This document shows, piece after piece, positions 1,775-53,436 of a stretch of DNA of 64,000 nt. The DNA comes from an uncultured Bacilli bacterium. GTDB lineage: Bacteria > Bacillota_I > Bacilli_A > RF39 > UBA660. A program made the position numbers and the translations under genes. The DNA is taken from the NCBI GenBank assembly GCA_963931185.1, contig OZ006981.1, positions 766,859 to 830,858 on the forward strand. Reading direction: 5' to 3'. Each line of letters begins with the position of its first letter. Position 1 is the stretch's first letter. The notes under the pieces were generated by a model, which was not told the origin of the DNA, made no database searches, and was given only the letters and a program-made list of their open reading frames with translations.

Positions 1775-3358
1775 ATGTGTGGATTTATGGTATATACAAA
1801 AAAAGATATATCAAAAGAAAAACTAGAAAAGGAATTTAAAAAAATAAAACATCGTGGACCAGATATGACTAAAATAATCGAAAAAGATTCAAATACGTTT
1901 CTTTTTCATAGATTAGCAATAATGGGATTGGATGAAAAAGGAATGCAACCATTTGAAAAAAATAATAAGATAGTTGTATGTAATGGAGAATTATATGGTT
2001 TTCGAAAAGAAAAGAAAAATCTAATGGAAAAAGGATATACATTTGAAAGCGAAAGTGATTGTGAAATTTTAATACCTATGTATGAGACATATGGAATTGA
2101 AATGTTTAATAAACTAGATGCAGAATACGCACTGGTAATGTATGATGAAAAAAGCAAAAAAATAATTGCTGCCAGAGACCCAATTGGAATAAGACCAATG
2201 TTTTATGGATTTTCTAAAATAAGTGGTGAAATAATGTTTGCAAGTGAAGTAAAAGCAATAAATGATTTATGCAATGAAGTTAAGCCATTCCCACCTGGTT
2301 ATTTTTACATAAATGGAGTTTTTACTAAATATTATGATGCTACAGAAGTTCATAAAAGAAATAACGACAATTTGAATACTATTTTTAAAGAAATAAATAA
2401 AAAATTAACAAAAGCAGTTATAAAAAGACTTGACTCAGATGCTCCACTTGGTTTTTTATTAAGTGGGGGACTTGATTCTAGTTTAGTTTGCAGCATTGCA
2501 ACTAAGTATTTAAAAAAGCCTATAAGAACATTTTCCATTGGTATGGATAAAGATGCAATTGATTTAAAATATGCAAAACAAGTTGCAGAGTATATTGGTA
2601 GCAAACACACAGAAGTAATAATAACAAAAGAAGATATAAAAAAAGCCCTTGAAGAAGTTATTTATAAGCTAGAAACATGGGATATAACAACAATAAGAGC
2701 TTCAATTGGAATGTATTTATTATGTAAATGGATTAAGGAAAATACGGACATCAAGGTATTGCTAACAGGAGAAGTTAGTGATGAGTTATTTGGATATAAA
2801 TATACAGATTTTGCCCCAAATGCTAAAGAATTTCAAAAAGAAAGCAAAAAAAGAATACGAGAACTATATATGTATGATGTACTACGTGCTGATAGGTGTA
2901 TATCAGGAGTATCAATTGAAGCAAGAGTACCTTTTGCTGATTTAGAATTTGTTGACTATGTAATGGGAATTGATCCAGAAAAAAAATTAAATAAGTATAA
3001 TATGGGAAAATATTTATTAAGGCAAGCATTCAAAGACAACTATTTACCCGAAAACATTTTATACAGAGAAAAAGCTGCTTTTAGTGATGCAGTAGGACAC
3101 TCTTTAGTAGATGATTTAAAAGACATGGCTAATGAATTGTATAGTGATGATGATTATCAAATAAAGAAGGAAAAATATAAAAAACATATTCCATTTACAA
3201 AAGAGTCATTAATGTATAGAGAAATTTTTGAAAAATATTATACTAATAGAGATGATTTAATAATTGATTATTGGATGCCAAATAAAGAATGGGAAGGATG
3301 TAACGTTAATGATCCTAGTGCTAGAGTATTGTCAAATTATGGAGCAAGCGGAGAATAA
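1775..3358 (+). CDS. asnB: Asparagine synthase (glutamine-hydrolysing)
   Basis: N-terminal MCGF class-II glutamine amidotransferase nucleophile and the SGGLDSS PP-loop motif; 527 aa. Confidence 0.9.
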   Translation: MCGFMVYTKKDISKEKLEKEFKKIKHRGPDMTKIIEKDSNTFLFHRLAIMGLDEKGMQPFEKNNKIVVCNGELYGFRKEKKNLMEKGYTFESESDCEILIPMYETYGIEMFNKLDAEYALVMYDEKSKKIIAARDPIGIRPMFYGFSKISGEIMFASEVKAINDLCNEVKPFPPGYFYINGVFTKYYDATEVHKRNNDNLNTIFKEINKKLTKAVIKRLDSDAPLGFLLSGGLDSSLVCSIATKYLKKPIRTFSIGMDKDAIDLKYAKQVAEYIGSKHTEVIITKEDIKKALEEVIYKLETWDITTIRASIGMYLLCKWIKENTDIKVLLTGEVSDELFGYKYTDFAPNAKEFQKESKKRIRELYMYDVLRADRCISGVSIEARVPFADLEFVDYVMGIDPEKKLNKYNMGKYLLRQAFKDNYLPENILYREKAAFSDAVGHSLVDDLKDMANELYSDDDYQIKKEKYKKHIPFTKESLMYREIFEKYYTNRDDLIIDYWMPNKEWEGCNVNDPSARVLSNYGASGE

Positions 3359-32939: not shown

Positions 32940-33006
32940 TTATATATATTTAAAAAAATGGAAAAATATGGTAAAATTATTCATTATAAAATAGTAGGTG
33001 AAGGTA

Positions 33007-33738
33007 ATGATTAATTTTATAATTTGTGATGATAATAAAGAATTTTCAGAAAAAATTAGAAAAATAATTAAAAACTACATGATGAACTTTGACATAGTTG
33101 ATAAATTTTATATGTATGAAGACTATAGTGATAAGTTTAAGTCAGAAATAAAAGAAATCGAAGGGTTTAAATTATATATTTTGGATATTGAAACAAAGTG
33201 CAATTCTGGAATAGATGCTGCTAGATATATAAGAGAAGAATTAGATGATTGGAATTCACTAATTATTTTTTTAACGGCACACAATGAATTAAAGTTTGAA
33301 GCATTAAGCAATAGACTTTATTTGTTGGATTTTATAAATAAATTTGATAATTATGAAAACAAGCTCAAAGAAGATTTAGAAAGAGTAAAGAAAAATTATG
33401 ATAACAGAGAAAAGTGCTTAACCTTTGAGTCAAATAGAGTTATAAAAAGAATAGATTTTAAAAATATTGTTATAATTGAAAAAGAAAAAGATAGCAAAAA
33501 GTGTATAGTAAAAGCAACCTACGGAGATTACGTAATTCATAAAACTTTAAACGAAGTATTTAAACTTTTAGATAAAAGATTTATAAAGACAAGTAGAAGT
33601 AGCATTGTTAATGTAGACCAAATAAGTGAATATGATTATTCAGAAAATAAAATATTGTTTAAAAATGGAATTGTAACCTTTGATATTTCGAGAAATAACA
33701 AAAAGAAGGTGTGCAACAGTGTCAAGTCTTATAGGTAA
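33007..33738 (+). CDS. agrA: AgrA-like response regulator (receiver + LytTR DNA-binding domain)
   Basis: Receiver domain (ICDDN..., YILDIET with phospho-acceptor Asp) plus a C-terminal LytTR-like region. It is adjacent to an AgrC-like kinase. The start is probably ATG 33007 after an AGGTGAAGG RBS. Confidence 0.75.
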   Translation: MINFIICDDNKEFSEKIRKIIKNYMMNFDIVDKFYMYEDYSDKFKSEIKEIEGFKLYILDIETKCNSGIDAARYIREELDDWNSLIIFLTAHNELKFEALSNRLYLLDFINKFDNYENKLKEDLERVKKNYDNREKCLTFESNRVIKRIDFKNIVIIEKEKDSKKCIVKATYGDYVIHKTLNEVFKLLDKRFIKTSRSSIVNVDQISEYDYSENKILFKNGIVTFDISRNNKKKVCNSVKSYR

Positions 33739-35020
33739 TGTAATTGGTTCAATAATTCAAAGTTTAACAGTAGTGCTTTGTGCTAAATCAATTTTATTAT
33801 ACAATAACAGAAAAAAAATGTTGACAATAAATGATTTGCTTTTCCTTATTTTTCTGTTTGTGCCTATTTCTTTAATTTATAGTAGTAATTATAATGTAAT
33901 AAGTCCTATTTTGTTTTTTACAGTAATTATATTTTGCTTGTTTTTTATATATAAAATTTCATTTTTAACATCGTTTTTATTTTCAGGAATCTTTATGATA
34001 ATTTTGGTTTTATCAGATTTAATAGTATCTATAATCTTTGTTGGATTCTTAAGTATTCAAACAATAAGAACAGAAAATTTTTACATAATATTAACAAATT
34101 TATTAGTTGGATTAATAGAGGTCGGGATTTTTTATATAAATGGATTTAAAAACAAAATAGTAGATATAATTTTAGAAACTGCAAAACATAAAAGTTTAGA
34201 ATTAATAACATTTATAATTTTACTAATTTTTGCTTTGAGCATTGGCATTTATATTTTGTTTGAAAATTATTATTTGAATAGAACTTTTATAATTGGAATA
34301 TTAGGAATTGTTATATTTTTAATTTTGTCCATTATATTTTTAAAAGAAAAATATGACAAAAATCTTTTAACAATTAAATATGATCAATTGTTTGAATATG
34401 TGCAGACTTTTGAGGAATGGATGGATAATGAAAATGTAAATATTCATGAATCAAAGAATCAATTAGCTGCATTACGTGCTATAATCAAAAATAATAAAGA
34501 AGCTATTCAATATATTGACAATATAATAAAAGATGAAATTGATTTAGAAAGTAAAAATATTCAAAAATTAAGAAACATTCCCAAAGGAGGATTAAAAGGA
34601 CTTTTATATTATAAAATAATATTTTCCGAGAAAAATAACATAGTTTTGTATATAGATATATCAAATAAAGTCGGAGATAAATTAGCCAAGTTAAATATTG
34701 AAGAAAATAAAATGCTTTGCAGATTGGTTGGGATTTTTTTTGATAACGCTATAGAGGCTGCTAAAGAGTCGGAAAAGAGAATGATTTCATGTGAAATTTA
34801 CAGGAATGATAAAGATATTATAATAACCATATCAAATACTTATGCAGGAAAATTAGAGTTAAACAAAGTAAGTGAAAAAGGATATTCAACCAAAGGGAAA
34901 AATAGAGGTAATGGTCTTTATTTAGCAAATAAAATAGCAAAAAAATCTGATATATTTTTTTTGGAAAACAGGATAATTAATGATTTTTATATTCAAAAAA
35001 TAATAATAAAAAAGATATAA
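33719..35020 (+). CDS. agrC: AgrC-like sensor histidine kinase (polytopic sensor + HATPase_c_5)
   Basis: Six to seven N-terminal TM helices and a C-terminal GHKL ATP-lid (NTYAGK...GKNRGNGLYLANKIA). The track ORF starts at TTG 33680. The likelier start is GTG 33719, preceded by a GAAGG RBS. Confidence 0.7.
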   Translation: MSSLIGNVIGSIIQSLTVVLCAKSILLYNNRKKMLTINDLLFLIFLFVPISLIYSSNYNVISPILFFTVIIFCLFFIYKISFLTSFLFSGIFMIILVLSDLIVSIIFVGFLSIQTIRTENFYIILTNLLVGLIEVGIFYINGFKNKIVDIILETAKHKSLELITFIILLIFALSIGIYILFENYYLNRTFIIGILGIVIFLILSIIFLKEKYDKNLLTIKYDQLFEYVQTFEEWMDNENVNIHESKNQLAALRAIIKNNKEAIQYIDNIIKDEIDLESKNIQKLRNIPKGGLKGLLYYKIIFSEKNNIVLYIDISNKVGDKLAKLNIEENKMLCRLVGIFFDNAIEAAKESEKRMISCEIYRNDKDIIITISNTYAGKLELNKVSEKGYSTKGKNRGNGLYLANKIAKKSDIFFLENRIINDFYIQKIIIKKI

Positions 35021-35467
35021 ATTTATATCTTTTTTATTTATAAGAAAATTATGTTTTTTTTGCACAAATTAAAAAATAATAGTTATTAATTTATTACACA
35101 AAGAATAAATTTTCATATTTTGAGAGACTTTAATTGGAAATGACCTATTACTTTAAATAAAAGTAAATAAATATTAGAATTGAAAGATAGATCATATCAA
35201 AAGTATGAAGAATATAAATAAAACTTAAATGAATTATAATTTATATTTCATATTTTTATTAATGTTTAATAGTAATAGAGTTAATATTAAATAAATATTG
35301 TAATTTTATCCTTTTTTAAAAGAGTGTCTAAGTTTTGCCAATAGTAAAAACATTATGTTTATACGTGCATCTAAAAATTTATTTCATGTTTTTAAACATT
35401 TGTTTAATATTAAAGTTAATTTTTCTATTGTTAACTTTGTCTTTAATTTTAATAAAATCTGTATTAT

Positions 35468-35552
35468 TTTTAATACATATAATAATAAATATATTATAAA
35501 TTAAAATAAACCAGCCTCAAAGAGGTTGGCAAATAAAATTGATTTTGTTATT
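35468..35552. repeat. Hairpin repeat element, copy 2 (ACCAGCCTCAAAGAGGTTGGC stem-loop). It acts as a bidirectional terminator between the convergent agrC and agrD.
   Basis: About 80% identical over roughly 70 bp to 478..549. A/T runs flank the hairpin on both sides. Confidence 0.55.
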
Positions 35553-35555
35553 TTT

Positions 35556-35678
35556 CTAGTCTATTAAATTTTTTGGCGCTCTTGGTTCATCTACTAAAAG
35601 TACAATGCATCCCATACTTGCAGCACCACTTGCTAATACAGCAATTGCAGTTAATAAGCTTGCTACTTTTTTCTTCAT
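35556..35678 (-). CDS. agrD: AgrD-like autoinducing-peptide precursor (40 aa). It is absent from the supplied ORF track.
   Basis: Manual minus-strand translation: MKKKVASLLTAIAVLASGAASMGCIVLLVDEPRAPKNLID. It has an amphipathic N-leader, a single Cys in a hydrophobic core, and a charged DEP..PK.L tail resembling the S. aureus DEVEVPKEL recognition motif. A GGAGG RBS sits 8 nt upstream, and the gene is immediately 3' of agrB. Confidence 0.7.
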   Translation of the reverse strand: MKKKVASLLTAIAVLASGAASMGCIVLLVDEPRAPKNLID

Positions 35679-35726
35679 ACTATACCTCCTATAATAATAA
35701 TATATATTAAATATCAAAATTGATAT

Positions 35727-36338
35727 TTAATCAGAATTAATGTAATTTTTATAATTATTATATGGCTGCCTAGTTGCCATATATATAAAAGGATTTACCA
35801 TGATTGATTGAATAACAATTGATAATAATAAAATTGATGAAATTTTATAATCTACATAAGGAATAATAATCGAATAGATAATGGTAACAAGAATAATTAA
35901 ACATTTTCTAATCATTTTTTTCTTTTTATTAATCATAGGTCTTTTTTTTGTATCGCTAGGTGCAAATAATAAAAAATTAAATATACATAAACTTATTAAT
36001 AACCATTTATAATTAAATATTAATAGTTGTTTAGAAATTAAAAACGGTAAAATGAAAAATAAAGTTATGGAAATAACTAAACATTCGGTACTATTTCTAG
36101 CATGATACCCAAATCCAAAAAAACGTAAAAAATTATAAAATAACAATAATAATAAAATTTCATATAATATATTAAAAATAAAACCTAATAGCAAAATGAC
36201 AAATAATTTAGTAACTGTTAAATAAATGCCTTCAATACCATACTTGATTTTATCTAATTCATCTTTAGAAAAAGCAGGGTTGTTTTTTTTAACCACATTC
36301 ATATAGTTATTTAAAAATAAATCTTTCATATACTTCAC
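35727..36338 (-). CDS. agrB: AgrB-like membrane peptidase that processes AgrD
   Basis: About 200 aa with 5-6 TM segments. The conserved His...Cys catalytic pair is present (YHARNSTEC, H to C spacing +7 as in S. aureus HAPSSFWC). Confidence 0.7.
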   Translation of the reverse strand: MKYMKDLFLNNYMNVVKKNNPAFSKDELDKIKYGIEGIYLTVTKLFVILLLGFIFNILYEILLLLLFYNFLRFFGFGYHARNSTECLVISITLFFILPFLISKQLLIFNYKWLLISLCIFNFLLFAPSDTKKRPMINKKKKMIRKCLIILVTIIYSIIIPYVDYKISSILLLSIVIQSIMVNPFIYMATRQPYNNYKNYINSD

Positions 36339-36604
36339 TTCCTAATTTATACATTTAAAAGTATAAAATAAAAAACACAGTGTTAAACAAATTAAACTTC
36401 AAATGTAATAATTAATGCATTTAATACAAAAAAATAATTTAAATATATTTAAAAATTCCAAAAAAGGAAATAAAGTGCCATTTAAAGGAATAAATTATCA
36501 TAATAGAAAATTTGATGTTACTATTAAGATGCGCAAAATTGTAGTAGCCATGGTAGGAAGTGTAATATGTGAAAATAACAAAAGAATGTGAGGTGCCAGT
36601 AGAT

Positions 36605-53122: not shown

Positions 53123-53381
53123 ATTTTTTTTTGCAAAAAAATTCATTAATATATGAATTTTTTTTATTTATAAGGAAGTGCGTTTGAGCATACAAATAAA
53201 AAAATGTGATAGAAGTTAAATTATCACGCAATAAATAAACCTACTTATTATGAGAGGTTTTAATTGGAAATGATAGGCCATCACAATAAGGGCATTTTAT
53301 CTCAAAAGACTTTTTAGCATTAATAAATTTTAAAAAAACAAGACGTTCTTAAAAATTAGTAGATAATAAAAACATTTTATA

Positions 53382-53436
53382 AAAGTATTGTGAAAAAAAT
53401 AAAAGTATTGTAAACTTTAAATATAAATAATAATAC
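53382..53436 (+). promoter_or_regulatory. Direct-repeat regulatory module plus a sigma-A-like promoter upstream of the prepilin-like gene
   Basis: AAAGTATTGT at 53382-53391 and 53402-53411. TTGTAA-17-TAATAC at 53408-53436. It is near-identical to 752..800. Confidence 0.5.

Follow-up and report, generated by a model that had tools for sequence, protein, structure and literature searches.

A convergent agr-type peptide signalling locus, with a probable IS91-family remnant between its two units, in an uncultured member of the Bacilli

The window analysed here is a stretch of 64,000 nucleotides (contig OZ006981.1 of assembly GCA_963931185.1, positions 766,859 to 830,858) from an uncultured Bacilli bacterium; its G+C content is about 25%, and it has spoIIID, mreB, secA and a ribosomal RNA (rRNA) operon on board. 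At its middle lie four genes that we read as an agr-type peptide quorum-sensing locus. On the + strand, agrA (33007-33738) encodes a response regulator of 243 amino acids with a receiver and a LytTR DNA-binding domain, and is followed by agrC (33719-35020), which has a GTG start, overlaps agrA by 20 nt and encodes a polytopic sensor histidine kinase of 433 amino acids. On the - strand, agrB (35727-36329) encodes a membrane cysteine peptidase/cyclase of 200 amino acids, the length of its homologues, and is followed by agrD (35556-35678), which encodes a 40-amino-acid precursor, MKKKVASLLTAIAVLASGAASMGCIVLLVDEPRAPKNLID. In the gene order of the window agrA and then agrC are read toward agrB and then agrD, and the two units face each other with their stop codons 535 bp apart (35021-35555).

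The gene ends given here were refined from the lengths of homologues and from independent gene calls on identical metagenome contigs, the start of agrA being chosen from homologues of 242-244 amino acids and from such calls. The original prediction, made from the letters of the window, had delimited the same four open reading frames (ORFs) by their longest versions. The frames themselves hold, but the ends of agrA, agrC and agrB were corrected, from 246, 446 and 203 amino acids to 243, 433 and 200. An exact look-up of the 203-amino-acid version of AgrB gave no match because the real protein has 200 residues. The whole locus is 100% identical, with every ORF intact, in several independent metagenome assemblies of the same species, and the other assemblies of this species include one 1-Mb contig. 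The identical AgrC protein occurs in 49 blocks of a public assembly collection, which indicates that the allele is widespread and stable.

The AgrB protein matches PF04647 with an E-value of 2.3e-30 and 105.8 bits (cut-off 23), and the NCBIfam model PRK01100 with 1.6e-28. Among 30 aligned homologues its residues H76 and C83 never vary, and their spacing equals that of the catalytic H77 and C84 of Staphylococcus aureus AgrB (Qiu et al. 2005, cited by PMC13056109), so that the protein has the form of a membrane peptidase with the catalytic His and Cys. The kinase matches the GHKL family HATPase_c_5 (PF14501, 1.8e-11) and, over its full length, the NCBIfam AgrC model (2.7e-19, model positions 20-414). 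The solved structures closest to it are those of S. aureus AgrC, 4BXI and 6E52 (about 2e-14), to which the H-box His, the N-box and the G-box align, and about six hydrophobic segments fall within residues 1-210, as in a polytopic sensor joined to an HPK10-type core. The regulator matches LytTR (PF04397) with 1.9e-12 and 47.6 bits (cut-off 22.6), and aligns end to end with the NCBIfam AgrA model (residues 7-236 to positions 3-237 of 238). The Asp, Thr and Lys of its receiver (in ILDIE, LTAH and DFINK) line up with those of canonical receivers, and AgrA accordingly combines a phospho-acceptor Asp receiver with a LytTR domain. The three Pfam families that had been proposed as checks for regulator, kinase and peptidase were each matched by the respective protein.

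The small gene agrD stands directly 3' of agrB, with its start 48 nt past the agrB stop and a GGAGG ribosome-binding site 7 nt upstream, and gene calls on independent assemblies likewise place a gene of 40 amino acids here. Its position, length and motif are kept in all relatives whose contig spans the site. It encodes an internal Cys and a charged C-terminal tail, DEPRAPKNLID, as an AgrD-type precursor does. In an alignment of 75 homologues taken from the loci of relatives, the family has a leader of the form MKK(K/R)xxxxLxAxAxLA(S/T)GAASxG, followed by a Cys that is almost always kept, a stretch of exactly five residues, hydrophobic and hypervariable, and the tail [DE]-E-P-x-A-x-K-x-x-x-D; the peptide of the window is accordingly dissected as MKKKVASLLTAIAVLASGAASMG-C-IVLLV-DEPRAPKNLID, with a single Cys.

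Several results tell against an assignment of these genes to agr. The AgrD of the window reaches only 15.9-16.5 bits (E 0.007) with TIGR04223, below the cut-off of 19, and Pfam AgrD (PF05931), the fourth family proposed as a check, is silent for it. The receiver of AgrA scores 27.2 bits with the Pfam model Response_reg, slightly under the cut-off of 30.2, and a phmmer search of AgrA against the PDB found nothing significant; at E-values up to 10 it gave generic receiver domains only, weak matches that did not include the LytTR domain of S. aureus AgrA. Since the precursor stays below threshold in hidden Markov model searches, its assignment leans on context, on the motif and on matches at the level of the family: TIGR04223 matches 26 of 35 AgrDs of the clade at E <= 1 (best 1.3e-5), and the staphylococcal PF05931 matches one of the 35.

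Pairs of HATPase_c_5 and LytTR proteins also serve Blp, Com and Fsr-like systems, and with a sub-threshold precursor one may therefore ask whether the locus is a Blp/Com-type or other LytTR two-component system that happens to lie beside an unrelated membrane protein and a chance ORF. We consider this extremely improbable. The membrane protein scores far above the AgrB cut-off and retains both catalytic residues, the kinase has its best NCBIfam and PDB matches in AgrC, conservation of the small ORF is as described above, and there is neither a double-glycine leader nor an adjacent gene for an ABC exporter or a C39 peptidase. Membership of the kinase or regulator in another two-component family, a reservation attached to the original prediction, is contradicted by this evidence from AgrB, AgrC and the conserved small ORF. 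Its claim that all four parts of an agr system are present is borne out by the domain searches, the catalytic residues, the synteny and the conserved LytTR repeat described below, which together back a complete agr-type system. We have very little doubt that the locus is a genuine and intact agr-type peptide signalling locus and that the 535-bp gap is an IS91-family remnant, and the overall explanation that we favour as likely is quorum sensing by an autoinducing peptide (AIP) of the agr type, encoded in two convergent units, in a low-G+C gut member of the Bacilli.

The tail of the precursor allows a prediction of the signal. Its DE...PK.L pattern lines up with DEVEVPKEL, the corresponding tail of the S. 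aureus precursor, and this points to an AgrB cut before Asp30 and hence to a six-residue macrocycle, CIVLLV. Ahead of the Cys, small residues stand at -3 and -1 (S-x-G), which suggests that the leader is removed directly at the Cys and that the peptide has no exocyclic tail. According to this model, AgrB would strip the C-terminal DEPRAPKNLID and link Val29 to Cys24, and the signal-peptide-like leader would be cleaved right before Cys24, behind the conserved S-x-G. The product, CIVLLV, would be a tail-less six-residue macrocycle, at first a thiolactone, and this thiolactone would probably rearrange to a head-to-tail cyclic hexapeptide because the amine of the Cys is free. A weakness of the model is that the cleavage site, and with it the ring of six, is inferred by alignment with precursors of S. 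aureus and clostridia, and we give the exact structure of the product about an even chance. That the locus encodes a novel autoinducing peptide, as first proposed, holds in so far as the core CIVLLV is a distinct allele; the precursor family has already been catalogued, and six-residue tail-less AIPs are known.

A different fate of the same Cys has to be weighed here. The leader may be that of a lipoprotein-type precursor recognized by signal peptidase II, in which case Cys24 would be diacylglyceryl-modified by Lgt and the leader taken off by LspA. What acts as the signal would in that event be a lipopeptide, anchored in the membrane or carried by vesicles, rather than a freely diffusible thiolactone, and this lipopeptide might be cyclised by AgrB via its free N-terminal amine, or merely be trimmed. 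The classical lipid-attachment pattern (a K/R-rich N-region, a hydrophobic core and [small]-x-G-C at position 23-25) is present in 30 of 35 AgrDs of the clade, that of the window among them, which could divert Cys24 to lipidation and so counts against the thiolactone; weak matches to lipoprotein signal models point the same way. However, the single Cys of the precursor is the only nucleophile for a thiolactone of the AgrB type, the residue at -3 is Ser and not the usual Leu, Val or Ile, and S-x-G before the Cys fits equally well the rule of signal peptidase I, with small residues at -3 and -1. Moreover, two members of the clade with ordinary amphipathic leaders keep the core of C (or T) plus five residues and the DEP. 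No lgt or lspA gene was seen in a crude motif scan of the window, a result that is uninformative on the rest of the genome, and the same kind of scan found no gene for signal peptidase I or a CAAX protease within these 64 kb. Lipidation is, on balance, an unlikely outcome for the peptide of the window.

The family to which this AgrD belongs is listed as cluster I of the "predicted AIP-lipoproteins" (bioRxiv 10.1101/2025.10.31.685832, Suppl. Table 7; PNAS 2026, PMC13056109), a list drawn from the human-microbiome survey of RiPPs, peptides made by ribosomes and altered after translation, in PMC11953309. Entries of cluster I such as MKKAFTYVLT(AI)AILATGAASMGCAIALTDEPKAPKSMMD and MKKLLAMILSGVGVLAAGAATTACVIVLIDEPSMPNKMIEK are the AgrDs of our loci L051 and L067, and a substring search of Suppl. 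Table 7 did not find the peptide of the window with its core CIVLLV. In PMC13056109 the authors leave undecided, for members with a single Cys, whether the site is lipidated or blocked by the thiolactone. Judged by text searches of its main text and supplement, that work lists peptides only, and to these the present analysis adds the gene layout, the synteny, the predicted AgrA box and the insertion of a mobile element. The clade offers a clean test bed for the question raised in 2026, whether single-Cys AIP precursors with lipoprotein-type signals are lipidated or cyclised. One may also speculate that the AgrD leader is a true lipoprotein signal throughout the clade and that AgrB and Lgt/LspA compete or cooperate on one Cys. 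We regard this as a shade less probable again than lipidation of the window peptide; if it were true, a lipid-anchored macrocycle, dependent on contact or vesicles, would place agr signals in a chemical class not seen before, and the split layout with autoinduction of agrBD only would belong to the same adaptation.

Between the two units, an AT-rich hairpin at 35005-35038 overlaps the agrC stop codon and appears to be the ancestral bidirectional terminator. It consists of a perfect 15-bp stem between an A-run and a T-run and folds at -12 kcal/mol whichever strand is taken (z = -4.3 and -4.6), and none of 200 shuffles was as good. In relatives the stop codons of agrC and agrD are typically a few tens of bp apart (20-70 bp in the sister lineages, and up to about 75 bp in an estimate based on tblastn), and in L001, the locus of a sister lineage, as well as in L003, L008, L051 and L010, an equivalent AT-rich hairpin is the sole element between them. 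In the window this hairpin now adjoins agrC alone. A second, G+C-rich hairpin lies about 470 bp away, at 35511-35529 on the - strand, 26 nt past the agrD stop, and is the one to which the original prediction referred; it is the stem-loop CCAGCCUC-AAA-GAGGUUGG, and since it is followed on the - strand by UUUAUUUUAAUUU, it is probably the present-day terminator of agrBD.

The second hairpin reveals the likely origin of the gap. Its core, the 16-mer CCTCAAAGAGGTTGGC, has two copies in the window where none is expected by chance, and the second of these, at 507-522, precedes by about 30 nt the start (478) of the transposase gene of an IS91-family insertion sequence (IS). The 5' part of this element occupies 2-545 of the window on the - strand, with the N-terminus of the transposase running off the left edge; the 159 amino acids visible (2-478) carry the zinc-binding domain PF14319 (5.4e-20), and a double hairpin at about 499-545 precedes the gene. 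Full-length elements were retrieved by a metagenome scan with the hairpin sequence, and the G+C-rich hairpin stands 5' of a transposase in L092, L094 and L096 as well. The elements of L096 and L092 have the hairpins, a transposase of 388-394 amino acids (394 in L096), a zinc-ribbon ORF of 79 amino acids and a conserved 3' end, and the transposase of L096 matches Y2_Tnp (PF04986, 3.3e-33) and Zn_Tnp_IS91 (PF14319, 5.4e-22).

The gap is collinear with both L096 and L092 in three blocks, all in the orientation of agrBD. The 5' end of the element corresponds to window 35566-35370 (L096 862-1060; 78%, E 1e-43), an interior derived from the transposase to window 35381-35156 (L096 1265-1501; 70%, E 9e-19), and the 3' end to window 35143-34996 (L096 2326-2476; 72%, E 1e-17). 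As both ends match a full-length element with Zn_Tnp_IS91 and Y2_Tnp domains, the likeness is to the IS91 family, whose members have a Y2 transposase and move by a rolling circle; in contrast to the full-length element, the gap copy has no ORF and is about 1 kb shorter, having lost most of the transposase and the 79-amino-acid ORF. The empty site is seen in L001, L003, L008, L051 and L010, and the gap segment, which the sister lineage L001 lacks, recurs with 100% identity in further assemblies of this species. We conclude that the gap is in all likelihood an old insertion of an IS91-family element, decayed and internally deleted (35041-35555, 515 bp, - strand), which sits exactly between the T-run of the terminator and the agrD stop and forms no part of the agr system. 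No transposase ORF is left in the gap, and tblastn finds no similarity to the transposase at the protein level, for which reason the element is filed as a decayed remnant only. The non-coding gap of roughly 530 bp of the original prediction does separate the two units, by 535 bp, but it is not an anonymous spacer; the shared hairpin terminator described there holds for the relatives and not for the window, in which the remnant parts agrD from the ancestral hairpin and brings a hairpin of its own. The value of the window itself is therefore corrective: the odd gap and hairpin are in all likelihood IS debris rather than regulatory architecture.

Two other readings of the gap were tried and rejected. 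As the home of a transposase N-terminus detectable at the protein level it came out empty in tblastn, and the remnant is supported by nucleotide collinearity alone. As the source of a small RNA or protein it offers no ORF of at least 20 amino acids on the - strand and no match to any Rfam family, also at permissive E-values on 34950-35600; the ORFs of the + strand are AT-rich, and the one whose upstream sequence was read (ATG at 35355) is without a ribosome-binding site of the GGAGG type.

An insertion at this place raises the question of whether the locus is being inactivated. With a 515-bp remnant between the convergent units, and with the ancestral shared terminator now 517 bp from the agrD stop, agrBD could have been uncoupled from its terminator or be exposed to antisense read-through, and the locus could be silent or decaying. 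Yet the insertion lies strictly between genes and leaves each of the four ORFs intact, the hairpin and U-run at the 5' end of the IS can stand in as terminator of agrBD, and the locus, remnant included, is identical in the independent assemblies mentioned above, as is AgrC in its 49 blocks. The element is degenerate, which makes the insertion old, and the agr genes have nevertheless stayed intact. We therefore hold inactivation to be very unlikely, and return to an intact agr locus that carries an insertion between its units.

Two observations concern the element rather than the agr genes. A solo 3'-end fragment at window 53137-53356, 81% identical to L096 2242-2464, abuts the terminator hairpin of the 5S rRNA. 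In three of three cases (agrC, the 5S rRNA and, in L096, tuf) the 3' end of the element (…CTTATAAAT) touches the A-run of a convergent terminator, and this suggests that insertion of the IS91-family element may be targeted to terminators.

The arrangement of the genes was compared in a scan of one genome per species, which gave 425 AgrB relatives. The best 80 of these were examined; all come from uncultured gut genomes assembled from metagenomes and are labelled Bacilli, "Tenericutes", "Mycoplasma sp. CAG:877", or Candidatus Onthousia, Scybalousia or Faecimonas. When located by tblastn with the four proteins of the window, agrB-agrD converge on agrC and agrA in every locus long enough to judge, within a shared neighbourhood of an M23 peptidase gene, spoIIID, mreB and a glycosyltransferase gene on one side and csp, hpf and secA on the other. 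The convergent arrangement is still present at 41% AgrB identity, where two tandem agrC genes are found. The convergent layout thus appears to be ancestral, and the rule, in a large clade to which these uncultured gut Bacilli belong. The arrangement had been described correctly as non-canonical and convergent, but it is not peculiar to this locus, as it is found clade-wide at the same site. Split agrBD and agrCA units have been described for clostridia (PMC12312760), and for agr2 of Clostridioides difficile the text gives a reversed gene order only; our literature searches found no paper that spells out the convergent form.

The sister lineage L001 shows where such loci diverge. The flanking genes and agrA have 90-92% nucleotide identity to those of the window and agrB has 87-89%, whereas the kinase half of agrC has 75% and its sensor half 60%. 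At the protein level AgrC is 57% and AgrA 95% identical, and the five residues after the Cys of AgrD are IVLLV in the window and MIILV in L001. This divergence centred on agrC has the pattern of agr "specificity groups", as judged from the sequences compared. Beside a single agrBD, the loci L011, L023, L063, L067, L080 and L098/L099 have either a second agrC in tandem or the agrC-agrA pair in duplicate; the extra copies could be two receptors for one locus or reflect a recent divergence of specificity. Compared with the window, locus L006 (CASEVQ010000032.1) is a mosaic. Its identity amounts to 99-100% across csp, the agrB-csp intergenic region and agrB, to 87% in agrD (core VIILM) and to about 90% in hpf and secA. 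This mosaic reflects either recombination of agrB-csp between lineages or a chimeric metagenome assembly.

The divergent intergenic region between agrB and the cold-shock gene csp carries, on the agrB strand, a direct repeat of the LytTR type that we predict to be an AgrA box (36455-36490, - strand); it consists of TTCCTTTAAATGGCA, 6 nt and TTCCTTTTTTGGAAT, with a period of 21 bp. Sites of AgrA and LytTR regulators have such a 21-bp period, with 9-bp repeats and 12-bp spacers. The position-weight matrix used started from a motif seen upstream of agrB in several loci, and 81 non-redundant loci served to refine it. In 73 of the 81 it has its best match 140-170 nt upstream of the agrB ATG, and in 45 of these 73 the strongest second half-site follows at +21 or +22; the consensus half-site is TTCCnTnAAnTGTnA, repeated. 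Within the whole window, 36455-36490 is the top-scoring paired site. Two points weaken the prediction: the paired-site score of the window, 19.8, does not go beyond that of the best shuffle, 20.7, and the matrix was trained on the same agrB upstream regions and is partly circular, so that the support for the box comes from its conserved position and spacing. A site of at least 12 bits is found in 56 of 81 agrB upstream regions versus none of 63 agrA upstream regions, and neither the agrA upstream regions of the window and of 63 relatives nor the gap of the window yielded a LytTR-type repeat. Upstream of agrA there is instead a promoter-like site (32949-32977, + strand; TTTAAA, 17 nt, TG-extended TAAAAT) picked by a consensus scan only, and the 67-bp intergenic region there is 97% identical in L001.

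These features would fit the following circuit. AgrC would sense the peptide and phosphorylate AgrA, and AgrA would bind the 21-bp-period repeat upstream of agrB and raise the transcription of agrBD in a positive feedback; agrA and agrC, with a promoter of their own and no such site, would probably be expressed independently. With a repeat at agrB but none at agrA, signal production alone is predicted to be auto-induced. The predicted AgrA box may possibly also act on csp. In many relatives (for example in L013, L014, L017, L025, L049 and L070) the agrB upstream region has a second conserved repeat, TTCGACAAAWTTCGAC, whose period is 11 bp and which comes immediately downstream of the LytTR-type box. 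Neither the window nor its closest relatives have this repeat, which may be a -35 region or another operator.

Among known agr systems, those closest in logic appear to be the clostridial split systems with six-residue tail-less signals. The AIPs of Clostridium acetobutylicum, [CVLVTL], and of Ruminiclostridium cellulolyticum, CWFWSY, have six residues and no tail (PMC12312760, PMC8251862), and the tail-less thiolactone of CWFWSY rearranges spontaneously to a homodetic cyclopeptide (PMC8251862). As in C. acetobutylicum agr and R. cellulolyticum Agr1, the two genes for the signal are transcribed here as one unit and those for sensor and regulator as another, the predicted core is Cys plus five residues without an N-terminal tail, followed by an x-E-P...P/K...L tail, and the predicted tail-less product is expected to become a homodetic cyclopeptide. 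Unlike in these systems, the units converge on one terminator, ancestrally shared, with agrA before agrC, the host belongs to the uncultured Bacilli, the LytTR repeat stands at agrBD only, and the AgrD leader is short and resembles a signal peptide or lipobox. Clostridial AgrD leaders are longer and differently built.

With the agrBDCA/RNAIII system of S. aureus the locus shares the four protein families, the AgrB His and Cys at the same seven-residue spacing, an AgrC kinase core that aligns to 4BXI and 6E52, the hypervariability centred on agrC between close lineages and, as a prediction, a LytTR direct repeat of 21-bp periodicity upstream of agrB. The repeat TTCCnTnAAnTGTnA differs from ACAGTTAAG, the S. 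aureus consensus. The locus does not have the staphylococcal form, a single agrBDCA operon with a divergent RNAIII: no Rfam RNAIII match was obtained in the window at gathering level, or in 34950-35600 at permissive E-values. Further differences are a predicted ring of six residues instead of five, without an exocyclic tail, and an agrAC unit that is apparently outside the autoinduction loop. Outside staphylococci a single agrBDCA operon with RNAIII is not required (PMC12312760). The locus is thus a new example of a known system and not a new kind, a real but ordinary member or a minor variant. What distinguishes it, namely two units that converge on a terminator shared ancestrally, a leader of the signal-peptide or lipobox kind and a predicted autoinduction of agrBD only, appears to be common to the whole clade.

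A large uncultured group of small-genome gut Bacilli, whose genomes are often named "Tenericutes" or "Mycoplasma sp. CAG" in public records, possesses one conserved agr system that is fixed on the chromosome. Since receptor and signal diversify at the level of strains or species, peptide cross-talk is probably regular among these gut organisms, and the clade supplies dozens of natural AgrD/AgrC pairs for synthetic testing.

Other features of the window lie apart from the agr locus. The direct repeats AAAGTATTGTGAA and AAAGTATTGTAAA, paired with a period of 20 bp, occur in two identical copies, at 752-784 and at 53382-53414, each copy inside a 77-nt block, and the two blocks are 84% identical to each other. 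The first copy lies upstream of a yabP-like gene (862), the second upstream of a gene (53442) for a type IV pilin-like protein of 614 amino acids, and the repeats are possibly the site of a shared regulator or a promoter. A T-box leader at 1471-1709 (Rfam RF00230, 130 bits) lies upstream of an ORF of 527 amino acids (1775-3358), whose N-terminus, MCGF…, suggests a class-II amidotransferase or asparagine-synthetase-like enzyme.

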